DNA from: an uncultured virus (IMG/VR IMGVR_UViG_3300037418_000344)
Taxonomy: Duplodnaviria; Heunggongvirae; Uroviricota; Caudoviricetes
Virus record (IMG/VR): IMGVR_UViG_3300037418_000344
Length of the DNA stretch: 20,000 bases
Direction: 5' to 3' (one strand)
Shown here: in pieces, positions 605 through 18,783 of the stretch
Numbering within the stretch: the first letter of the stretch is position 1
Layout: each line of letters starts with the position of its first letter
Notes under the pieces: model-generated
Databases searched by the model: none
What the model was told of the DNA's origin: nothing
Seen by the model: the letters and a program-made list of their open reading frames with translations, nothing else
Position numbers and translations under genes: made by a program

Positions 605-3600
605 TTACCTCTCTACAATTTTATAAGATGTTCCAACTTTAGTTGATGTAATTGCAGTTGTAGTTCCACTCACAATCTTGTTAGCAGCATTGTCTTGAGA
701 ATCATACACAGCCCCCACAAGCGTGTTGGTTGTAGCTTGATTAGACTCTGCGACAGTGGCTTTCAAGTCGTTAATAGCTGCAACAACATCTGCATGCACA
801 ACGGATTGCGTACCTGTTGAAACGGTTGCTGTCACAGGAGTTATTGCCTGAGTGCTACCAGTGCTTCCAATCGGCTTAATTTCACCCTTAGCTTCAGGGC
901 TATTAGCAATGGCATTTGCAATATCTGTCAGCGAAACGCCTTGGCTAATTTTATCCAGCCAGAATTGCATACCTGCTGCGTCAGAAGCACGATGAAGGAT
1001 GTCGTTGTACAACTTCTCAATTGCAGACTGTGCATTGCTTGCCGCTTGATTCGCCACTTGATCACCTTTCGGAGTACCCTTGAGTGCAGTGATGAGATTG
1101 GCGATAGCTTGAGAAACAGTGAGCAGGCTATCATTAACATCAATCAAACCTTCTACTTGCTTGTTCAAAGCATCTAACGTTGCTTGAGCGACATTCACTT
1201 GCTTCTGAGCCCATTCAGTTGCTTGCTGTGTCACCTTCTGTGCGTACACAAAGTCTTTTTGATATTGTGCACCAGAGGCATTAGCCACTTTAGAAGCTTC
1301 AAGGAATGCTGTGTAGGACGCTTCAAACTGGTCTTGCGCATCTTTATCACCGTTCTGAGCTTTTTCAGCAACAGTCTCAAATTGAGATTTAGCTTCAAGG
1401 TACTTCTGCTGAGGAGTGAGAGGAGAAAGATCGCCAAGCATGCTAGAAGAGGACAATTGCTTCAACGTGGTGACAAGACTCTTCATCTTGTCTTGCGTCT
1501 CTTTAATCGCATCAGACTCGCGTTTGTAAGCGTCAGTCAGAGCACTGCGAGCATCATTTGCAAGCTTCTCAGTGTCATCGATTGTCTGCGCGAATGCAGG
1601 GGCAATGTTCATCAACGTGGCAAACATTTTCGCACCGGCTTCTGTCGTCAAATCAAGGCTATCCACAACTTGCTTGAATTGCTCTTTAGTTTTGACGTAA
1701 GACAACCCAAGGCCATCCATAGCAGTAGACACAGACTTGATGATCGGCATAAGCTTTTCTTGATCTGTGTAGATTGCGTTAATGTAGGACTTAACACCTT
1801 TTGTCAGATTGTCAACAGAACCAAATTGTTCGATCAAAGCTTCAGATGTGGAGATTGCATCTACTGCTTTTGGAATTGTTTTGCTGAGCGAATCAAACAC
1901 ATCTTTAACCTGTTGCAAGTCATTCGCAACACGCACCACAGTTTCCATCAACCCTTCACCAATCTTTTGATACTTCTGAAGGTCGGAGAACGCGAATTGC
2001 GCCATTTGATCGCCAAGCTTGGAGAATACATTCTGAAGAGTCTTTTGAATCTCGTCGCCGGTCATCCCTTTCAAGCTGATATTACCAATGTCAACAACAA
2101 AACTTTGCAGCTTCTTGTCAAACTCGTCGCCACCAATACCAAGACCAACAGCAGCAGTTTTGAGCGTGTCTTCCATGCTCAACACAACCTGAGTGATTTG
2201 GTTATTGAACTCAGTGCCCAAAGTTTGTGTTGATGTGTCGTGACTATCGCTGCGGAACCATCCACCGCTTGTGGTCGTGTTAGTGTACTGTTGACCCGTC
2301 AAGCCAGATGTTTCTACTTGACCAAGTGACGTTTTGCCGATGGTAAGTCCCGTGTCATCAACTGATTTAGAACCACCAAAGACACTACTCAGTGCTTTAC
2401 CAACAATACCATGTCCAACCATCGCCCCAATAAGTGCACCTGCGATTGTACCCAACACAGGAAATGCAAACGACATACCAATTGCTGCGTATGCTGCAAG
2501 GGAAGCTCCCCCAAGTGCTCCACCCACTGCACCCAATCCATTTACTGTTTTGTTGTCAAACGACTTACTATTATTTGCCGTGTAACCAGTGAGACCACTG
2601 TTTTGAACAGCCAGAATGGCAAAGCTGTTGATGCTGTTGTCCAGTTTCCTCAAAGCATCTAGCATATCGTTTTGCACAACAAGGCCAAGGCCGGAATTCT
2701 TCTCAGTGATTTTCAGCGAGTTGGCAATAGAATCAGACTTTTGACCAACCAGCTTGACATCTACACCATCAAGGATTGTTGGGGCGCCTAGCACTGTTCC
2801 AGTACCCTGCCGCCTCTGTTGTTCTTCCGAAGATATCGGACCACCGCCACCACCTGTAACAGCCACACCAAACGCAGCAACTGCTGCTGTCATTGCAGCT
2901 ACACCGGCAAATCCACCCCAACCAGATTGAGCGAACATTGTTGCCGCACCTGCTGCCAATTTAGCAGGGATAGATGCAAGAGCCATAGCCGTCTCTGCCA
3001 AGTGGAAGGCTTTGGAAATGCTTGTGGCAATTTTGTAACCCTGGCTTTGTTTATCGAAGAATCCGGAGGCGGCATCTGCAATGCTTCCATACATTGCAAT
3101 AGTAGATTGCGCGCTGCTATCTTGAAGTGCTGTAATTTGTCTTGTGCGCTCCTCGTCTGTAAGACCGTCCTTTTCCTTGACGATACGAATCTGATTTGCC
3201 AAATCGATCTGTTGAGACTGGCTTTCTGCGAACACTTTGAACATCTCGCCAGCGGCTTTTCCAGAGTTTCCAAACGCAGCCTTCAGCGATTTTTCAATCT
3301 CATTGCCCGCATCTTTCCACATCTTAACTTGCTCTGTGGCAATCTTAGTAAGGGCAGAAGAACGGTTGAGTGCGTCGTTGTTTTGTTTGTCATTGGCCTC
3401 TTTGGCGACATCGACAGCCTTAAGCTTCTGACGTGCTGCTATTTCTTTATCGATTTGAGCAACACGCCGCCCATTCATAGCTTGCTCAATCAAGTCATTG
3501 CTTTGCAGAGAATCACGCTCAGCTTGGAGTGTGTCGATCTTCGCCTGTTCAACTTCACTTGCCATCTCTTTTTGGCGTACACCAACAGCCTTAACTGCAT

Positions 3601-5852: not shown

Positions 5853-6350
5853 TCACTCCCTTTGTTGTTGTCTCAAAAGTCTCATTTGTTCCATGAAGCC
5901 AATCGCCTTACCAATCTTGTCAACTTCATTTTCTTCCACCTCGGGGGTGTATGGTGCAGGACGCTTAGGGTCGCTTGCACGGCTGTATTCTGCGCAATAC
6001 GCTTCGGACATTCGCTTTAAGAGTTCCCTTTCCCACAGCGTAATGTCTAACTCGTTCACATCAATAAATGCCTTAATTTCTAGCCAAGATAAAGGCATCA
6101 AGCCCATTCCTGATTGCAACGCTTGCCCGGAAAGTGAAAAGATCGCGAGCAGATGACTCCACGGGCCGGGAATCTCCGGTAGTTGAATCTCTGTCGCGAT
6201 CTCTATCAGGTTGCCATCTTCTTCACGTTGCCCAAGATGCTTACCTTGGGCCATTTCAAAACGGCTGTATTTTGATTTTTCAGGCGTGGCGCCTAAGAAC
6301 GCAAGCTGTCTTGCGTACAATATAAATTGGGAACTTAGACTTTCAAAAAA
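5853..6350 (-). CDS. Tail assembly chaperone, frameshifted C-terminal part (gpGT/gpT-like)
   Basis: The 5853..6320 ORF has only a TTG start and no evident RBS. Its frame stays open upstream to the T-TTT-TTG slippery site at 6350-6344. Contains the PLSWLEIKAF...ITLWERELLKRMSEAY motif typical of gpT-like chaperones. Confidence 0.85.
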   Translation of the reverse strand, partial: FFESLSSQFILYARQLAFLGATPEKSKYSRFEMAQGKHLGQREEDGNLIEIATEIQLPEIPGPWSHLLAIFSLSGQALQSGMGLMPLSWLEIKAFIDVNELDITLWERELLKRMSEAYCAEYSRASDPKRPAPYTPEVEENEVDKIGKAIGFMEQMRLLRQQQRE

Positions 6351-6751
6351 CTTGCAGTGTCTCCGATTGCCTCATTAACTTGTTTCTTCACCCAATCGTA
6401 CTTGGCGTCCGAGTACAGCTTACGGAATGCGTCAGGGTTGTCAACAGGCTCTCCATCCAGAGTGAGGTTATCAATCTTAACCGACAACGCAGTCAGAAAT
6501 TCAACACTTTGTTCACGCATTTCATCCGGCGTTGCTTCACGCTTTCCACGTTTAGCTGCCTTCTTCATCATTGCATCTACCGCCTTGCGGTAGGCGGCGC
6601 TAGCTTCACCTTTCACTGTCACTTGCACAGGCTTCGACTCCGGGTCTTCACCTTTTTTAACAGGGGCGAACAGCGGCATTTCAGTAACAGGGTGATTCAA
6701 TTGGAAAGTGGTTTCATCCGACAGGGCCAGCGAATTAAGTTCAAAAGTCAT
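6335..6751 (-). CDS. Tail assembly chaperone (gpG-like)
   Basis: 138 aa, located between the tail tube and TMP. RBS AAAGGA. Ends ...TASFLKV* across a slippery sequence. Confidence 0.88.
   Translation of the reverse strand: MTFELNSLALSDETTFQLNHPVTEMPLFAPVKKGEDPESKPVQVTVKGEASAAYRKAVDAMMKKAAKRGKREATPDEMREQSVEFLTALSVKIDNLTLDGEPVDNPDAFRKLYSDAKYDWVKKQVNEAIGDTASFLKV
6344..6350 (-). other. -1 programmed ribosomal frameshift slippery heptamer T TTT TTG
   Basis: Minus strand reads GCA AGT TTT TTG AAA GTC TAA. A -1 slip gives ...TTT GAA AGT CTA AGT TCC CAA TTT ATA TTG TAC GCA, in frame with ORF 5853..6320. Confidence 0.85.
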
Positions 6752-6772: not shown

Positions 6773-7744
6773 TTATGCTGCTTGTGCAGCTTGGTTGTTA
6801 GAGCTATATTGCTCTTTGGATTGTTGTGAAATTAGTTGTTCGATACGGTTTAGGAGGGATGCTAGGTTTACGTCGTAGAAGCATTCTCGCCATCCGTCAA
6901 ACGGCATTAAAGGTTGAATGTATTGAGATTTTAACTCTTGTAATATTAGAGTTTCGGTTTTACGCGCTCGCCAACCTTCGACAAAACTGTATGTCTTTAA
7001 TACTTTCAAATCTTTACCTGAATATCTTGCGACTGTTTTGCAGCGCTTCTCCGGGTTGTTATTTGTAATTCCAATTTTCGTCATATCCCCGTCTGTAAGA
7101 ACATATAGAAAACCTTTTTGTGAGCCTTTGAATCCAGATACCGAACAATACGGACAACCTCGTCCTGAAAGATGAGAACCGGGCGCCTGCCAAAAACTTT
7201 CGTGCTCTGGACAAATTATCTCAACCTTTACTTCAGAATTTTTGTACACGACCTTGTGGTATTGATACCTATTACCATGCACATCATTGGCATCTTGGAT
7301 AAAATTCTCCAAGGTTTTTCTACATCTATCACCTTGTTCCTTGAGGTTACACTTCGGGCAACCTGCACGATTGGCGGTATGGTTGTGGAATGACTGAGAA
7401 AACCACCCATGCTCATAGCAAAAGATATCAATTTTAGAATTCTTGTTCGTGTAACCAAGAGGTTCTTTGTACACGTACCTGTCACCATGCGCTTGCCTGA
7501 TTTCTTCCCGTGCAACGTACTCAGGTTTTCTCCGGGAGTTGGCTACAGACTCTTTGCCGCACTCTGGGCACCCGCTGCCGTTAAGAAAGTCATTAGGGAG
7601 TGCCATCCAATCTTGGTGTTTGAAACATGTTATCGACACTTTAACTCGTGCGCCGTCATACCTTACATTTTCATATCCGTACTTGGTTCCATGCTTGCTG
7701 ATAGCATCTTGTATAAATTCTTCGGTTGTTTTCTTCTTAGTCAT
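6773..7744 (-). CDS. Free-standing putative homing endonuclease: three zinc-ribbon (DUF723-like) repeats plus a C-terminal GIY-YIG/T5orf172-like nuclease domain
   Basis: Three ~65-aa repeats of the form F...HG..Y.Y....Y......V.I.C..H.......H..G.GCP.C. The C-terminus has GFLYVL...KIGITNNNPEKR...E...FDGWRECF. AT-rich, inserted between tail tube and chaperone. Confidence 0.85.
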   Translation of the reverse strand: MTKKKTTEEFIQDAISKHGTKYGYENVRYDGARVKVSITCFKHQDWMALPNDFLNGSGCPECGKESVANSRRKPEYVAREEIRQAHGDRYVYKEPLGYTNKNSKIDIFCYEHGWFSQSFHNHTANRAGCPKCNLKEQGDRCRKTLENFIQDANDVHGNRYQYHKVVYKNSEVKVEIICPEHESFWQAPGSHLSGRGCPYCSVSGFKGSQKGFLYVLTDGDMTKIGITNNNPEKRCKTVARYSGKDLKVLKTYSFVEGWRARKTETLILQELKSQYIQPLMPFDGWRECFYDVNLASLLNRIEQLISQQSKEQYSSNNQAAQAA

Positions 7745-7798
7745 AAATCTCTGTCTTTAACATTCTGTTTATAAGAACGCTGAAGAGAGGGATTTACA
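7742..7798 (-). promoter_or_regulatory. Hairpin sequestering the RBS and start codon of the endonuclease gene
   Basis: Arms TGTAAATCCCTCTCTTCAGCGTTCT (7798-7774) and AGAATGTTAAAGACAGAGATTTATG (7766-7742) pair in register: 25 positions, 18 Watson-Crick, 4 G-U, 3 mismatches, loop TATAAAC. Confidence 0.75.
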
Positions 7799-7820
7799 GT
7801 CCCGTACCTCTTACAACAAG

Positions 7821-7836
7821 GAGGGCTTTCGCCCTC
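7821..7836 (-). terminator. Terminator-like or stabilising hairpin after the tail tube gene
   Basis: GAGGGC-GAAA-GCCCTC (GNRA loop), 8 nt after the stop codon. The following tract CTTGTTGT is a weak U-run, so it is probably leaky. Confidence 0.6.
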
Positions 7837-7844
7837 TATACTAC

Positions 7845-8294
7845 TTACGTACCGCTGATAATCGAATTATCCAGTTCGATGTCGATTGTTTGCTCCAGAA
7901 TTTTGTCTGCTGTGCCGACATTAACTTGAAGCGAAGTTACAACGCCCGAAAAGTAGTCCTTCCCCATAGAGCCGGGGTAAGTCACCTTAAAAGCTACCGA
8001 CGAACGCGAATTAAATGCTGTTTGAAGTGCTGTGTAATCAGCACCCGCATGCTTAGCAAGAGTCATCGAGATAGTGCCATAGTCCACACTACCAGCCCGC
8101 TTCACTACGGTCGCCGTGTCGATTGGAATGTGCTTAATAATTTGGCTTTTACCGCCAAAGACACCGAGGTTCGACACTTCGGCAATAGGAATCCACGTCA
8201 GAGATGCGAAGTCTGTGGCAGTATAGGTTGCGGGCAGCGTAGCCGAAACGCTGATCGAAGTAGTTGCGCTAGTAATAGCGAGAGAACCGCTCAT
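7845..8294 (-). CDS. Major tail tube protein
   Basis: 149 aa, beta-rich (W..IAEV.NLG.FGG...K.AGSVDYG...FKVTYP...YFSG.V). Strong RBS AAAGGA. Sits between the terminator and chaperone genes. Confidence 0.85.
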   Translation of the reverse strand: MSGSLAITSATTSISVSATLPATYTATDFASLTWIPIAEVSNLGVFGGKSQIIKHIPIDTATVVKRAGSVDYGTISMTLAKHAGADYTALQTAFNSRSSVAFKVTYPGSMGKDYFSGVVTSLQVNVGTADKILEQTIDIELDNSIISGT

Positions 8295-9231: not shown

Positions 9232-9260
9232 ATTATAGCATTGGTGCACTATCTTGTCAA
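9232..9260 (-). promoter_or_regulatory. Consensus sigma70 promoter with extended -10
   Basis: TTGACA (9260-9255), 17-nt spacer ending TGC, TATAAT (9237-9232). Intergenic, upstream of the tail completion gene. Confidence 0.85.
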
Positions 9261-13719: not shown

Positions 13720-14177
13720 TATTGGGGCTCCACGCCACCGTTAGCAACAGGACCACTGTAAGGGTCAAAAGGGCCGGCAGCAATTTGATGCAAACGTTCG
13801 TCAGATGTCGGGCGATTCTGTGCGTTAGTGAAGTCTTCTTTGAATTGCAAGATAGGATGAAGTTCATCTGCACCTGCAACATATGGCAGAGGGCAAACGC
13901 CGTTGAAAGCGGGGTCTCTTAGGACTAAAAGCAGATAGTCTTTGTACTGGTTGTAGACCTGACTCCCATAAGATGTAATAATACCCATCTTAGCGTCAGA
14001 GTCGAAACTGAGTGTAGCAAGGATATATTGCCCACACAGAGCACGTGCAGCTTTAAAATTGTTGTTGTACTTGTCAAGGGCACTTTGGTAGATGTCATCG
14101 TTCAATACGGGCAAATCCCTCCAATCGCCGAGTGCCAACCTAAGTTGCCCTATTAGTGTGGACGGATCAATTAACAT
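13719..14177 (-). CDS. Head-tail adaptor (connector) protein
   Basis: 152 aa, helical, N-terminal IGQLRLALGD motif. First structural gene after the capsid gene. RBS GAGGA. Confidence 0.7.
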   Translation of the reverse strand: MLIDPSTLIGQLRLALGDWRDLPVLNDDIYQSALDKYNNNFKAARALCGQYILATLSFDSDAKMGIITSYGSQVYNQYKDYLLLVLRDPAFNGVCPLPYVAGADELHPILQFKEDFTNAQNRPTSDERLHQIAAGPFDPYSGPVANGGVEPQ

Positions 14178-15100
14178 AGTTCTTCCTCAATAAGTTCTCT
14201 AACACGATTAATTATTCCTTCTCTATCCACACCGTAGAAGCATTTCGTGCTTCCGTCAAACTTCACAGTTAAAGAGTTGTAATGTTCACACATCTCCTCT
14301 AAAATAACTCTTTCAAGAGTCTGCGCCATACAACCTTGTTCAAACCGCCAATACAATACCAGTTCAAAATGCAAACCTGCTGATTTAGATATTTCAGAAA
14401 TCCTAGTAATAACATCCCTATTTGTGATTCCAATTTTAGTGATGTCGTCACAACAAGAAATATAAAGATACCCTGCCTTATTCGGGTTGTATCCACAAGA
14501 TATACAGGATGGACAACCAGAACCACTATAGTGATTGTATGGCACTTGCCAAAATAGGCCGTGTTCTTTGCACTCAATCTTTATAGGCACTTCGCAGCCT
14601 TTATAGATAGCGTGGTCGTAGTTATACTTTTCCCCGTGAACCTGTGCTGCACGCATTTTAAAATGCTCTAAATCTGCTGTCCGCATCTTTGACATCAAAT
14701 CATCCGCACACTTCCTACAGCCTTTACCAGATAAGTGGCAATTTGGTGTCATACTGATCTTACCATGTTGCTTACAAATTATGTCTACTTTGACAGAAGA
14801 TTTCTCATATTCCACCACAGAGTAGTCAAACCTATCTCCGTGCAAAGAAACTGCCTTGCGGATAAAAGCTTCGGTGTTACTTCTGCTGCCCTTACCGATG
14901 GATTCGTCTGCGCATTTCCTGCAACCACAACCTTTTAAAAGATTGCCCGGAAGTACCCACGACACACCATGCTTCTTACAGGAGACTTCTACCTTGACGG
15001 AAGAACCCTTGTAGTCTATCCTTGACAAATCCCATACAGGATTTACCTTTTGACGGAGTTTGATTAAAAACTCTTCCGGTGTACTGTAACGCCTTCCCAT
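14171..15100 (-). CDS. Free-standing putative homing endonuclease: three zinc-ribbon (DUF723-like) repeats plus a GIY-YIG/T5orf172-like domain
   Basis: Same architecture as 6773..7744 (C..HG...GC..C x3; GYLYI...KIGITNRD...R...E...FDGSTKCF). Likely start is ATG 15100 with RBS AAGGAG; the ORF track uses 15115. Confidence 0.85.
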   Translation of the reverse strand: MGRRYSTPEEFLIKLRQKVNPVWDLSRIDYKGSSVKVEVSCKKHGVSWVLPGNLLKGCGCRKCADESIGKGSRSNTEAFIRKAVSLHGDRFDYSVVEYEKSSVKVDIICKQHGKISMTPNCHLSGKGCRKCADDLMSKMRTADLEHFKMRAAQVHGEKYNYDHAIYKGCEVPIKIECKEHGLFWQVPYNHYSGSGCPSCISCGYNPNKAGYLYISCCDDITKIGITNRDVITRISEISKSAGLHFELVLYWRFEQGCMAQTLERVILEEMCEHYNSLTVKFDGSTKCFYGVDREGIINRVRELIEEELC

Positions 15101-15103
15101 AAA

Positions 15104-15165
15104 TCTCCTTAACATAAGAACCTCAACGTTTTATTATCTCACGAGAAGTTCTTATAGTCAAGAGA
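15104..15165 (-). promoter_or_regulatory. RBS-sequestering hairpin containing a sigma70 promoter
   Basis: TTGACT (15161-15156), 17 nt, then TG-A-GATAAT (-10 at 15138-15133). Arms TCTCTTGACTATAAGAACTTC and GAGGTTCTTATGTTAAGGAGA form ~20 bp with two single-nt bulges, covering AAGGAG. Confidence 0.8.
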
Positions 15166-15169
15166 CTAA

Positions 15170-15187
15170 AGCCCTCCGAAGAGGGCT
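15170..15187 (-). terminator. Intrinsic terminator-like hairpin after the major capsid gene
   Basis: AGCCCTC-TTCG-GAGGGCT (cUUCGg loop), followed by TTAGTCTCTT, 7 nt after the stop codon. Confidence 0.7.
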
Positions 15188-15194
15188 AAGAATC

Positions 15195-16247
15195 TTAGTT
15201 GCTCGACGAGACAGCCCACAGGGACGCAGGCCGAGTACAAAACATAAGAGGTGCAGCTTCAAGTTCAAACTCGACAAACTCGTCGCGCGGATCGACGTAC
15301 GAACGCACGAACAGTTCTTGACCCGGCTGATTAGCTTCCGACAGTTTTGCAGACGGGCCGTTATAGCCACGGAACAGGTCTTTCACGCCGTCAGCGTAGG
15401 CGATGCCGGTCGAATCAGCGAAAGCCACTTCCGTCGTGCCGTTCGGCAGATTGAAGGTTGCGTCGTACGACACGAACGTGATGCCACGGTGGGTGAAGTG
15501 ATCCATGATGCCCCACTTCATGTATTCCGTCGTATCATCACGCAGCGCTTGGTTGCCAGCACCGTTAGCCATGTAAAACTGATAAGCAGCTTTCATGTTC
15601 GGATGCGAAATCAGTTTGTCGAAAAACACCGGATCGACCAGCACTTTAACACCACCAATTGCGCCACCATTCATAACACTCTTAGCAATACCAGATTTCA
15701 GCAGACGAATCTTCTGGTCAACGTTCGTGGTCGAAGTTCCGAGAACAAAGTCAACCGAGCTTTGGGCGATGCTGAATTGCGAGAACATGTCTGCCATCAC
15801 AGTGCCGTCCGGCGACTTGGTAACACCTTTCAGAGCTTGCAGGCGCATGTATTCCATCGTCTGGTCCCAAGCAAGGCGCAGGTCAGCCATCTTTTCAGCC
15901 GTGACACGACCGTACGTTTCGTTGTCGGTCGAACCCGGTTGACGCCAGCCTTGGATGTCCTCGTTGGTGATTCGATCAGCAGCTTTGAAATAAGCCAGCG
16001 GCAGCGAGAAGGTATCAACCTTACGCTCATGGCCTTGAACAGCAGCGTGAGCGCCGCGATTCACTTGAGGCATCAGCGTGACAGTTTGATAGTCCTTGTC
16101 AAAGATGATCGCCGTTTGATTGGTCGATTTCGTATTGAACAGGTTTTGGCTGTTGATGTAGCCGTATTGCAGCGGGGTTTGGGTAATGCCGTCAACGAAA
16201 TCGGCATTTTTGAAACTATTGAAATAGTCGCGAATAGTCATGCTCAT
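15195..16247 (-). CDS. Major capsid protein (lambda gpE-like family)
   Basis: 350 aa, with T.EYMRLQALKG...DMFSQF...FFDKLISHP...PLMFCTRPA. Follows the protease, scaffold and decoration genes and shows strong C/G-ending codon bias. Confidence 0.92.
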   Translation of the reverse strand: MSMTIRDYFNSFKNADFVDGITQTPLQYGYINSQNLFNTKSTNQTAIIFDKDYQTVTLMPQVNRGAHAAVQGHERKVDTFSLPLAYFKAADRITNEDIQGWRQPGSTDNETYGRVTAEKMADLRLAWDQTMEYMRLQALKGVTKSPDGTVMADMFSQFSIAQSSVDFVLGTSTTNVDQKIRLLKSGIAKSVMNGGAIGGVKVLVDPVFFDKLISHPNMKAAYQFYMANGAGNQALRDDTTEYMKWGIMDHFTHRGITFVSYDATFNLPNGTTEVAFADSTGIAYADGVKDLFRGYNGPSAKLSEANQPGQELFVRSYVDPRDEFVEFELEAAPLMFCTRPASLWAVSSSN

Positions 16248-17219: not shown

Positions 17220-18044
17220 TTAACTGAGCACGTAATCTACGAACTCGGAACGAGTCATAATTTTGTTGACCAAACCAATTGACAGAGCGTCTTGAGCGGA
17301 GTACACTCGTGCTTGTGTGTCCTTGAGGTCTTTTGTGGACAAGCCCGTGTAATTAGAGACGTGAGCACGGAATGCATCACCAAGCTCGGCAACACGCTTC
17401 TGCATGTCTTCAAGGAAGCCATCTCGCCACGAACCATCGTCTGCGAAAGGAACTTTGTCGCTGCCATCTGTAACGAATGTACGTTGAATGCCAGCTTGTT
17501 CAAGCTTCTTACTATCGTTGTAAAGGCAAATCAAGACTCCGATAGAGCCCACGTCAGCGTAAGGGTTGGCAATCACTTCGTCGCAAGAACACGCAATAGC
17601 ATAAGCAGCAGAACATGCTGAACCGTCAACGTAGCTAACGAGGCGAACACCAGCGGCATCACACATTTTGCGAAGTTCGTCAACTGATTCAAAACAGCCG
17701 TAAGCCTCGCCACCACCTGAATCAATGTCAAGAACAAGAGTTTTCGCTTTAGCTGCAATAAGTTCCTCAGCTTGATCCAGAAGCATTTCGTAGGAAAAAC
17801 CTCCGCACATACCCTCCCAACCTGTGGAACGGTATGTAAGAGGTCCACGAATAGTAATCACTCCAATATCGCCAGCAACAGGCACATCTTTTTTATTTTC
17901 TGTGCTCTTACTGCCTTCGATATCGATCATACCGGCGTTGCGAGCGTCAAAATAAGCCTCAACTTCTTGAAAGGCTGTTTTAGAAATTAGATGGGGGCGG
18001 TTTCGCAGGGAAGCGGTAAGCCGCAAAAGTTTGTGTTTATTCAT
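17220..18044 (-). CDS. Prohead protease, peptidase S49 family
   Basis: LDIDSGGGEA, GSACSAAYAIA, ADVGSIGV and A.SIGLVNKI motifs of S49/SppA-like proteases. Confidence 0.93.
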   Translation of the reverse strand: MNKHKLLRLTASLRNRPHLISKTAFQEVEAYFDARNAGMIDIEGSKSTENKKDVPVAGDIGVITIRGPLTYRSTGWEGMCGGFSYEMLLDQAEELIAAKAKTLVLDIDSGGGEAYGCFESVDELRKMCDAAGVRLVSYVDGSACSAAYAIACSCDEVIANPYADVGSIGVLICLYNDSKKLEQAGIQRTFVTDGSDKVPFADDGSWRDGFLEDMQKRVAELGDAFRAHVSNYTGLSTKDLKDTQARVYSAQDALSIGLVNKIMTRSEFVDYVLS

Positions 18045-18783
18045 GCATTTGCTCCGTCAAGTATTGCTCCTTAAACTGGAGCCACGCAGGGTCTTCTTTT
18101 GGAATCCAACCAGATTTGAACTTATCTTTCATTTTCCAAGGGTTGCAGTTTAAGAAACCAAGCATTTCCGCAAGACTCCTTGCCGCTGCTTTAGGATGCT
18201 CCAAATGTTTCTCATAAAAAAGGTCTGCAACTGCCCACAAATCTTTTCTAGCGGCGCTGTTTTCCCAAAGATTTCTCCCTGTCATGGCGAGTGCAAACTT
18301 CCTCTTAGATTCTTCACTCTTTACTCGCCCCGTGGCCTTTTGTCGAATCTTGTTTCGTGACTCTTCAGATAAGGGTCGCCCCTTCGACGCAGCGGACATC
18401 CTCTTACGGGTTTCTTCAGATATTTGTTTACCCTTGTGGGCCTTAGACATTTTTAGCTTAGAAGCTTCAGAATGACCCCTCCCGGAGAGGGGAGGTATCA
18501 ACCCTCCGGGAGCCAAGTTCCATGCGACCTCAGCGACGGGTCGCAATTCAGACTCTACGAAATAGCAAAACTCCTCATCACCTTTCGCTATGACTGTTCT
18601 GAGGATATCGTCACCGTATTTCCGCATAGCCCGGTGCACCAAATACTCAGAACCACTCCTTACACTGTAGTCGTGCACAGTCATTCTTCGGTCAAAGTTG
18701 TTTGTAACACCAACGTAACCTTCAGACTTAATATCGGTATGATTTTTATGTCTAATCCAATATACTACGTGGTCTTCAATCAA
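18037..18783 (-). CDS. Free-standing GIY-YIG homing endonuclease with NUMOD3 repeats (Seg-like)
   Basis: VVYWI...GYVGVT..F.RR..H...AMRKYG...E...WNLAPGG, followed by four SEE(S/T)(K/R).K-type repeats. The TTG start overlaps the portal stop (TTGA) with GGAG upstream; the 3' end overlaps the protease start. Confidence 0.88.
   Translation of the reverse strand: MIEDHVVYWIRHKNHTDIKSEGYVGVTNNFDRRMTVHDYSVRSGSEYLVHRAMRKYGDDILRTVIAKGDEEFCYFVESELRPVAEVAWNLAPGGLIPPLSGRGHSEASKLKMSKAHKGKQISEETRKRMSAASKGRPLSEESRNKIRQKATGRVKSEESKRKFALAMTGRNLWENSAARKDLWAVADLFYEKHLEHPKAAARSLAEMLGFLNCNPWKMKDKFKSGWIPKEDPAWLQFKEQYLTEQMHE

Follow-up and report, generated by a model that had tools for sequence, protein, structure and literature searches.

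How is a homing endonuclease, needed in small amounts, kept scarce when its gene lies inside an essential, highly transcribed phage operon? The question is raised here by a segment of the window, the stretch of 20,000 nucleotides that was analysed, which comes from an uncultured soil phage of about 89 kb. All genes in the window lie on the minus strand, so that the RNA is the reverse complement of the window letters. We lean towards reading the segment as the translation start region of the endonuclease gene, in which one hairpin (fold A) hides the start and a second one (fold B) acts as a built-in competitor. The locus can be read with unusual ease, since its relatives include both endonuclease-free and endonuclease-bearing alleles, the latter with ten versions of the leader. 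The genes and hairpins that frame the segment are the following.

6773..7744, minus strand: free-standing homing endonuclease gene (323 aa) with zinc-finger repeats and a T5orf172/MUG113 nuclease domain
7845..8294, minus strand: major tail (tube) protein gene (149 aa), stop codon at 7847-7845
6335..6751, minus strand: putative tail assembly chaperone gene (138 aa), assigned by position, with its own AAAGGAA ribosome site
7813..7836, minus strand: H1, a terminator-like hairpin GAGGGC-GAAA-GCCCUC (7836-7821) followed by CUUGUUGU, from a terminator pattern scan
6777..6815, minus strand: two small backbone hairpins, AGAGC/GCUCU (6815-6800) and GCUGC/GCAGC (6790-6777), now within the last endonuclease codons

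The original prediction, made from the sequence alone, had called the gene a zinc-ribbon endonuclease, and the Pfam and PHROG searches agree. Zinc-finger domains (DUF4379/CapR/DUF723) are combined with a T5orf172/MUG113 nuclease; DUF4379, MUG113, CapR and T5orf172 score above the Pfam cutoffs, and PHROG 681 (endonuclease) matches with an E-value of 1.3e-70. The N-terminus MTKKKTTEEF also agrees with that of relatives. The upstream neighbour matches PHROG 158 (major tail protein, E 1.5e-17), with Pfam Phage_TTP_12 below cutoff. For the downstream neighbour, which has relatives, Pfam and PHROG searches matched no family, and the ORF that follows it (5853-6320) matches Pfam Phage_TAC_18 below cutoff. 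The nearest cultured phage by major capsid protein is Pseudomonas phage vB_PsaM_M1 (65% identity), which has a contractile-tail module and lacks an equivalent junction; megablast of the DNA returned no match among phage records. T5orf172 homing endonucleases with repeated CapR/DUF723/DUF4379 zinc fingers have been described near phage structural genes (PMC10448857), and the window endonuclease shares both their domain make-up and their siting. The words 'hairpin', 'ribosome' and 'promoter' do not occur in the main text of that paper, so leader RNA control is not treated there.

The endonuclease gene sits between the major-tail and tail-chaperone genes, and its insertion site is empty in two relatives, the only two endonuclease-free sites in the comparison. 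In both of these a hairpin homologous to fold A, which we call P, is followed directly by the two small hairpins and the chaperone ribosome site, and the hairpins of 6777..6815 in the window align with this intergenic DNA. The endonuclease ORF sits directly behind the fold A hairpin, and in the window the two small ones form its last codons. H1 has the GC-rich stem and U-rich run of an intrinsic terminator (6 pairs, 5 of them G-C), as a pattern match only, and a GC-rich hairpin stands at this position in 11 of 12 distinct junction sequences, V6 being the one without. Small AUG-started frames in the leader, compared by eye, are not kept between variants, and no upstream ORF is conserved. The parts of fold A are listed below.

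7742..7798, minus strand: fold A (H4), backbone hairpin P plus an outer extension, 22 pairs, hiding the purine tract and AUG
7759..7781, minus strand: apical part of fold A, 8 pairs with loop 7773-7767, which can persist alongside fold B
7742..7758, minus strand: purine-rich tract (AAAGACAGAGAUUU) and AUG (7744-7742) of the endonuclease gene, from reading the sequence

A 25-position stem hiding the ribosome site and AUG had been proposed, and this stem is present as proposed. Pairing 7798..7774 with 7742..7766 gives 18 Watson-Crick pairs, 4 G-U pairs and 3 mismatches (7790/7750, 7787/7753 and 7782/7758) around the loop UAUAAAC (7773-7767); the purine tract is covered and the AUG lies within the basal pairs. 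A T4-late-promoter-like reading of this loop was rejected, as the loop is not kept in relatives and is not accompanied by a -35/-10 pair. Fold A is the minimum-energy fold in all contexts tried. For its 57-nt segment the folding energy is -17.1 kcal/mol; 200 dinucleotide shuffles average -5.3 kcal/mol (z -6.3), and none of them folds as well. We further find the endonuclease start region paired in the minimum-energy fold in all ten distinct endonuclease-bearing leaders at this junction. With a stable hairpin over the start and a homing endonuclease downstream, fold A belongs with the hairpins that are known to cover the start sites of T4 endonuclease genes. Because it pairs the purine tract and AUG, we propose that it would keep endonuclease translation low. 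Opening the start site in full context (-90 to +30) is computed to cost 7.5 kcal/mol, which is exceeded at 10 of 18 other gene starts in the window; such a cost is not unusual, so repression may be mild.

Upstream of fold A lies the arm of a second hairpin that draws on the same strand.

7783..7812, minus strand: fold B (H3), a two-tier hairpin with loop CUGUAAA (7799-7793), by pairing check
7800..7812, minus strand: 5' arm of fold B (AAGAG, GUAC, GGGA), a candidate anti-sequester strand, by pairing check
7783..7798, minus strand: shared pyrimidine-rich strand, whose partner is either 7812-7800 (fold B) or the purine tract and AUG (fold A)

The complementarity claimed for fold B is there, with AAGAG/CUCUU (7812-7808 with 7787-7783) and GGGA/UCCC (7803-7800 with 7792-7789). 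The two folds are mutually exclusive, again as claimed, since 7798-7783 is common to both and the 3' arm of fold B is entirely the outer 5' arm of fold A. It counts against fold B that a purine arm placed opposite a pyrimidine strand pairs easily. The leader comparison that had been suggested as a check on both stems recovers, for fold B, an equivalent hairpin of 9-12 pairs on the same pyrimidine strand in all seven related leaders of the window's type, with a few compensating changes; neither of the two endonuclease-free sites carries the module. The MAFFT alignment of the seven leaders is out of register for fold B, and its pairs were therefore counted per sequence. The shared strand occurs in three versions (UCUCUU, CUUUCU(U) and CUUCUU), and the upstream arms are their exact complements (AAGAG[G/A], AGAAAG and AAGAAG). 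C-G is also exchanged for U-A between V2 and V3. In all, about three compensating events are seen among the five distinct stems, which makes thin evidence.

Fold A is favoured by the energies. In the window it reaches -17.1 kcal/mol against -10.0 kcal/mol for the best fold that keeps fold B, and the corresponding pairs of values in relatives are -18.1/-15.8, -20.8/-15.2, -20.0/-19.6, -24.3/-16.1, -19.2/-14.8 and -17.7/-15.2 kcal/mol; in variant V3 (L027) the two states come out almost level. With fold A ahead by about 7 kcal/mol in the window, fold B has pair probabilities of 3-10% and is the minor state at equilibrium. Estimated barriers from fold B back to fold A are low (3.3-9.4 kcal/mol), which makes a long-lived kinetic trap unlikely. 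Removal of the upstream arm 7800..7812 raises the computed start-site opening cost from 5.7 to 13.0 kcal/mol in the window, and from 5.7-10.0 to 11.2-18.6 kcal/mol in all seven variants; fold B lowers the computed cost by 4-12 kcal/mol.

These numbers bear directly on the possibility that fold A alone matters and that in fold B a purine-rich spacer, or else an unrelated neighbouring hairpin, pairs with the pyrimidine arm by accident and without effect on expression. Apart from its minor share at equilibrium and the low barriers back to fold A, this explanation is helped by single-sequence tests, in which fold B (-6.8 to -7.9 kcal/mol) is within chance: its z-score is -1.17, 19 of 200 shuffles are as good, and when the 5' arm alone is shuffled 231 of 1000 sequences fold as well in the window and 5 to 251 of 1000 in relatives. 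It does not account so well for the recurrence of the fold B geometry in 7/7 leaders of the type and 0/2 endonuclease-free sites, for an upstream arm that tracks three versions of the shared strand, or for V1, V4 and V8, in which the shared bases are paired better in fold B than in fold A. We regard it as possible but somewhat unlikely.

The reading we prefer, with fold B as a built-in competitor, would run as follows. A T5orf172/zinc-finger endonuclease gene was inserted directly behind the conserved intergenic hairpin P, 3' of the major-tail gene. In the mRNA, P and its outer extension form fold A, with the purine tract and AUG paired, by the same logic as the hairpins of T4 I-TevI and segB and of Aeh1 mobE. 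In place of a promoter inside the hairpin, the purine arm 7812-7800 would take up the pyrimidine strand to form fold B, in which the start site is unpaired and the tip of P remains folded. Fold B would then be a competitor that arrived with the endonuclease and that permits low-level translation, by forming first as the RNA is transcribed or by being present as the minor equilibrium state, presumably with no external trigger.

The original prediction had gone further and proposed a sequester/anti-sequester switch. The geometry of such a switch stands, since a fold-B-type hairpin in 7/7 leaders makes it a conserved arrangement rather than a one-off; as for the switching itself, fold B is a minor state at equilibrium in the window, and no trigger was found. 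A stronger version, in which an endonuclease-borne RNA module (the upstream arm and the start-codon-pairing loop) turns the backbone hairpin into a true bistable translational switch, is a tentative and rather improbable one. During infection its state would be set, for example, by RNA processing that removes the upstream arm, by binding of a phage or host protein to the loop, or by ribosome traffic. If this held, a mobile element would carry a kind of regulatory device that has not been described for homing endonucleases. Middle-strand competition is known from the sequester/anti-sequester platforms of riboswitches and from the delayed folding of the MS2 maturation gene. As in those systems, the leader has three strands, the middle one pairing either the ribosome site or an upstream strand, and the upstream hairpin is transcribed first. 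Unlike them, the window leader has no evident aptamer, ligand or protein partner, and the low computed barriers would make any kinetic window short.

The origin of fold A raises another alternative, namely that the hairpin works for the phage backbone, whether in RNase III-type processing, in stabilising the mRNA 3' end or in attenuation behind the major-tail gene, so that start hiding is a side effect, or cleavage of the stem frees the start site. Conservation of the hairpin was assessed in 11 sequences, comprising seven leaders of the window's type, the separate P hairpin of two other endonuclease-bearing variants and the two endonuclease-free sites. Paired bases fill 90.7% of the cells, against 78.1% in shuffles (0/500 as high) and 38-60% in controls in which the 3' partner was slid by 1-3 columns, and changes on both sides are seen in 9 of 15 pairs, a count that 9 of 500 shuffles reach. 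Judged from this alignment, covariation in fold A is strong. The covarying hairpin is kept in endonuclease-free genomes with no start codon behind it; it spans about two helical turns with small internal loops and directly follows the terminator-like H1, all of which is in keeping with a backbone role. Fold A had been predicted as a sequester of the endonuclease leader, and of this claim the hiding of the start survives, whereas the notion that the hairpin was built for the endonuclease does not. As it exists without the endonuclease, start hiding may be a by-product of the landing place. However, the outer extension of the stem was gained in endonuclease-bearing variants, and since it pairs each variant's own start-codon region it looks selected for the endonuclease gene. 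A backbone role as the explanation of the segment is quite unlikely in our view. Such a role is compatible with fold A as a start-hiding hairpin with a competitor.

The same alignment bears on whether the segment functions at the DNA level, with the inverted repeat as an operator or an endonuclease recognition or cleavage region near the insertion point. I-TevI binds an operator at its own promoter, and here the endonuclease ORF immediately adjoins the repeat; moreover, sense and antisense strands fold about equally stably, with no strand asymmetry of folding energy. However, the repeat contains four G-U pairs, one of them invariant in 11/11 sequences, nine pairs change on both sides amid sequence drift, as would be expected of an RNA helix more than of a protein site, and the leader lacks a promoter-like site. 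We consider a DNA role very improbable.

Hardly credible is the idea that fold B mimics the anticodon arm of tRNA-Tyr or is the ligand- or protein-sensing aptamer of a true riboswitch: the loop CUGUAAA does equal the tRNA-Tyr(GUA) anticodon loop and folds A and B do exclude each other, but about 30 nt leave no room for an aptamer, and the likeness to tRNA-Tyr is explained as chance, because in fold A the bases of this loop are the partners of the start-codon region (GUAAAUC, 7797-7791, with GAUUUAU, so that GUAAA is accounted for by UUUAU). The loops of fold B in relatives (AAUGUAAA, CUUCAUA and UCGGUAAAG) differ in sequence and in length (7, 8 and 9 nt), and the 3' part of each pairs with its own start region. 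As the original prediction had noted, no cloverleaf is present, ARAGORN finding no tRNA gene in the window. Against Rfam 15, no hit in the window reaches a gathering score, and at 7650-7950 there is only noise (E of at least 2).

The element had been suggested as a possible cis-RNA motif associated with the endonuclease, but as a motif of the endonuclease family it is contradicted by distant homologues: at the 10 of 11 loci with a usable start, the start is no more closed than in controls (median opening cost 6.7 kcal/mol versus 8.0 kcal/mol at 45 control ORF starts). When five related records and the window were searched with a covariance model for the core of fold A, it matched its training sequences and their reverse strands alone, with one copy per related genome. 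A DNA pattern scan of viral contigs returned 13 stretches, of which six were the known loci and seven were unrelated with no start site behind them; a second such scan returned two known loci and nothing else. Three loci were found in a metagenome scan, none with a new complete leader, and a scan of prokaryote genomes for the element found no locus.

Hairpins that hide the ribosome site are described for I-TevI, I-TevII, I-TevIII and segB of T-even phages and mobE of Aeromonas phage Aeh1 (reviewed in PMC2988022); their purpose is to keep the endonuclease scarce, and short transcripts unable to form them arise from a late promoter within the 5' arm or behind it. The window leader resembles these systems in that the Shine-Dalgarno region of an endonuclease gene carried on long polycistronic transcripts is paired in a stable hairpin. 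It differs from them in having an upstream competing arm and no promoter-like site, in a hairpin that pre-exists in endonuclease-free relatives, and in both endonuclease family (T5orf172) and phage group. No sigma-70-like site (at least 9 of 12 matches) was found in 7745-7844 or in leaders V1-V4 by a scan that covers this type of site, as distinct from phage-specific promoter types. The known solution in T4-like phages combines a hairpin over the ribosome site with a promoter inside it; the window locus may represent a second solution, in another endonuclease family and another phage group, whereby a gene landed behind an existing structural hairpin of its host phage and carries an upstream strand able to compete for it. 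Should the competitor prove functional, this would be a selfish gene adapting host RNA structure for its own control, and a compact natural three-strand switch.

The T4-type feature missing from this leader, a promoter giving short transcripts without the 5' arm, is present in the window's other endonuclease leader (15100-15194). Together with L046 and V6 (L033), this leader belongs to the same phage group and endonuclease family, and like the leader studied here all three have a start-hiding hairpin after a terminator-like hairpin. Unlike it, they lack a competing upstream arm and carry a sigma-70-like promoter (10-11 of 12 matches) with the -35 box in the 5' arm, as in the T4-type design. 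In transcripts from the predicted starts of these promoters, the computed opening cost of the start site falls to 1.3-4.8 kcal/mol, versus 9.7-12.9 kcal/mol.

The start codon of the second T5orf172/zinc-finger homing endonuclease gene is enclosed by a long hairpin (fold A), with which a competing upstream hairpin (fold B) overlaps. Both lie in the 100-nt gap separating the major tail protein gene from the endonuclease gene, in a window whose long ORFs are all on the minus strand and together make up a phage head-and-tail module:

Minus strand: portal gene, first in the module order
18037-18783, minus strand: GIY-YIG/NUMOD3 endonuclease gene, between the portal and protease genes
Minus strand, next in order: protease, then decoration protein, then major capsid protein
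14171-15115 (per the ORF tool), minus strand: first T5orf172/zinc-finger endonuclease, after the major capsid protein
Minus strand: head-tail connectors, then tail terminator, after the first T5orf172 endonuclease
7845-8294, minus strand: major tail protein gene, after the tail terminator
7836-7821, minus strand: terminator-like hairpin with a U-rich tail (terminator scan), directly upstream of fold B
6773-7744, minus strand: second T5orf172/zinc-finger endonuclease, 323 aa, after the major tail protein gene
6815-6800 and 6790-6777, minus strand: two small backbone hairpins, inside the last codons of this endonuclease ORF
Minus strand, end of the order: two tail chaperone genes, then a 1748-aa tape measure protein

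Fold A joins 7798-7774 to 7742-7766 through 18 Watson-Crick and 4 G-U pairs; 3 positions are mismatched and the loop is UAUAAAC. In every context tried it comes out as the minimum-energy fold, at -17.1 kcal/mol against -5.3 for shuffles (z -6.3; 0/200 as good), and the AUG (7744-7742) falls within its basal pairs; the original prediction that this hairpin sequesters the start is sound. Fold B (7812-7783) is complementary as had been described, positions 7798-7783 are common to both structures, and the two are mutually exclusive.

With the major tail protein as query, 15 related viral loci were retrieved, 14 of them with DNA past the stop codon. All 14 carry a junction ORF of 299-449 aa with a similar N-terminus, confirmed as a relative of the endonuclease in the five records put through a protein search, and their leaders form seven distinct versions (V1-V7, V1 being the window). 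The chaperone protein as query added five contigs whose tail protein is more divergent. Three of them contain endonuclease ORFs, of 273, 267 and 315 aa, behind leaders V8-V10; in the other two, L099 and L100, the endonuclease is absent and about 125-140 nt separate the tail gene from the chaperone gene that follows it. We further note that the endonuclease ORFs behind the ten leader versions range from 267 to 449 aa, and that every related genome of about 89 kb (G001-G006) has this endonuclease family at several sites, with 3-6 matches each. To judge from sequence, the tail/chaperone junction looks like one site of repeated endonuclease replacement.

An upstream hairpin of 9-12 pairs is conserved in all seven leaders in which the backbone hairpin homologous to fold A (P) abuts the start codon (V1-V4 and V8-V10), and in each the outer 5' arm of fold A supplies the whole of its 3' arm. 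It takes three forms: AAGAG[G/A] and GGGA/UCCC separated by an internal loop (V1, V8, V4); AGAAAG[C/U]GUG with its complement (V2, V3); and AAGAAGUGU with its complement (V9, V10). UCUCUU, CUUUCU(U) and CUUCUU are the versions of the shared strand, the upstream arm matches each of them, and one C-G pair is exchanged for U-A between V2 and V3. L042, an eighth locus that is truncated, has the beginning of this arrangement; both endonuclease-free sites lack it (0/2). In V5 and V7, which have their own start-hiding hairpin, an upstream hairpin has four bases in common with it. That fold B is merely incidental is unlikely, though worth weighing: it contributes just -6.8 to -7.9 kcal/mol, 19 of 200 shuffles fold equally well in the window, and arm-only shuffles do as well in 231 (V1), 36 (V4), 5 (V3), 28 (V2), 251 (V8), 118 (V9) and 41 (V10) per 1000. 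The roughly three compensating events are suggestive but thin, because a purine arm facing a pyrimidine strand pairs easily. Against this stands the recurrence in 7/7 leaders of an arm matching each shared-strand version. The proposed anti-sequester role of fold B has moderate comparative support, with single-sequence stability remaining near chance.

Between the terminator-like hairpin and fold B, seven loci (L025, L027, L030, L087, L089, L097, L042) carry a further two-tier hairpin, capped by a GNRA tetraloop (GCGA or GUGA) and with compensating changes between variants in both stems; the window's leader is without it. In L025 (V2), an AUG-UGA start-stop pair directly precedes the endonuclease AUG (about 3085-3098).

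Fold A itself is, by this comparison, an older backbone hairpin. In L099 and L100 the terminator-like hairpin is followed directly by P (-22.8 and -13.3 kcal/mol), whose counterpart in the alignment is fold A in V1-V4 and V8-V10, and a separate hairpin in V5 and V7. Over the 11 aligned sequences, 9 of the 15 pairs in the consensus helix change on both sides; 90.7% of cells are paired versus 78.1% in shuffles and the covariation score is 0.43 versus 0.21 (0/500 as high for each), and sliding the partner by 1-3 columns leaves 38-60% paired. All 11 sequences keep one G-U pair unchanged (alignment A6 columns 17/46, window about 7780/7760), a pair that whatever uses P in endonuclease-free phages could recognise. 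Downstream of P in the endonuclease-free sites come two small hairpins, followed by the ribosome site of the chaperone gene (L099 2876-3000; L100 2862-3000); the window, L087, L089 and L097 carry this same pair of hairpins where their endonuclease ORF reaches its 3' end. Since P and the small hairpins are adjacent without the endonuclease and split by the ORF where it is present, the ORF has been inserted exactly between them, and P's purine-rich 3' arm turned into its ribosome-binding tract. The last ~15 codons of the window's ORF are backbone sequence, intergenic hairpin DNA in L099/L100. The presence of a covarying P in endonuclease-free sites would also suit a hairpin that chiefly serves RNA processing or stability in the phage backbone, a reading we hold to be improbable.

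The fold B loop, CUGUAAA, had been likened to a tRNA-Tyr anticodon loop, a likeness explained by its complementarity to UUUAUG. GUAAAUC (7797-7791) is paired in fold A with GAUUUAU, which takes in the A and U of AUG. The V4 loop is CUUCAUA, whose CAUA pairs with UAUG, and in the V8 loop, AAUGUAAA, GUAA pairs with UUAU. V2, V3, V9 and V10 have UCGGUAAAG, the 3' part of which pairs with the U-run preceding AUG in V3, V9 and V10; in V2 the hairpin's 3' arm does this instead, pairing with AUGUG just upstream of AUG. Because the loop pairs with its own start region across variants, we identify it as the strand predicted to cover the start codon. ARAGORN found no tRNA and Rfam no known RNA family in the window; the varying loop and its pairing speak against a tRNA mimic, an idea we reject, and we allow this or a DNA-level role only small odds.

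Energies of fold A and of the best structure retaining fold B in seven variants (kcal/mol)
Variant: fold A; best with fold B
V1: -17.1; -10.0
V4: -18.1; -15.8
V2: -20.8; -15.2
V3: -20.0; -19.6
V8: -24.3; -16.1
V9: -19.2; -14.8
V10: -17.7; -15.2

By these energies the window is strongly biased to fold A, and V3, V4 and V10 are near balance. Without the upstream arm, opening -16 to +3 has a computed cost of 11.2-18.6 instead of 5.7-10.0 kcal/mol in 7/7 variants. Estimated B-to-A barriers of 3.3-9.4 kcal/mol indicate that fold B would not be a long-lived trap. In full context the second endonuclease's start costs 7.5 kcal/mol to open and is no outlier (10 of 18 other window genes are higher). We infer that the leader would be carried on late transcripts reading through the terminator-like hairpin, that fold A would hold endonuclease translation low, and that the upstream arm, transcribed first, would compete for the shared strand and leave a small, variant-specific fraction of start sites open, an external signal being unnecessary. 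This reading as a whole is moderately probable. It places the element in a known kind of control, the start-site-hiding hairpin, of which the upstream competing arm is a variation.

PMC2988022 describes a ribosome-site-hiding hairpin with an internal promoter for T4 I-TevI, segB and Aeh1 mobE. That description matches the window's first endonuclease leader (15100-15194), its L046 variant and V6 (L033), where the ribosome site is likewise hidden in a long hairpin and a sigma-70-like promoter (10, 10 and 11 of 12 matches) has its -35 box in the 5' arm; start-site opening on transcripts from the predicted starts would cost 4.8, 3.5 and 1.3 rather than 10.2, 9.7 and 12.9 kcal/mol. The second endonuclease's leader differs from the I-TevI type so described in that it has the start-hiding hairpin but, by promoter scan, no sigma-70-like site. 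In the first leader (15100-15197, minus strand), a terminator-like hairpin precedes the long hairpin (z -5.3) over AAGGAG, which contains the promoter TTGACT-17-GATAAT (15161-15133); this endonuclease likely starts at the second ATG (15100), not at the ORF tool's 15115. Among distant homologues, ten of the 11 loci examined offered a usable start, and these start sites are no more closed than the starts of 45 control ORFs. Neither a covariance model nor two pattern scans turned up another copy of the element, and hairpins, ribosomes and promoters go unmentioned in the main text of a T5orf172 endonuclease survey (PMC10448857).

A DNA search found no near relative of the window in phage records, and its DNA occurs in soil and rhizosphere metagenome runs, with no RNA run among those listed. 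The nearest cultured phage by capsid protein is Pseudomonas phage vB_PsaM_M1 (65%), an Ounavirinae myovirus whose head module the window's resembles but whose tail module is a different, contractile one. Given this head module, siphovirus-like tail genes and no tail sheath gene seen in the window, the phage appears to be a mosaic. vB_PsaM_M1 also has an endonuclease gene (OP714164.2 46560-47258) in the same position as the GIY-YIG/NUMOD3 gene at 18037-18783. The tail completion gene has upstream of it a sigma-70 promoter of perfect consensus, preceded by TG (TTGACA-17-TATAAT; 9232-9260, minus strand), which suggests that the tail genes are read by host RNA polymerase.
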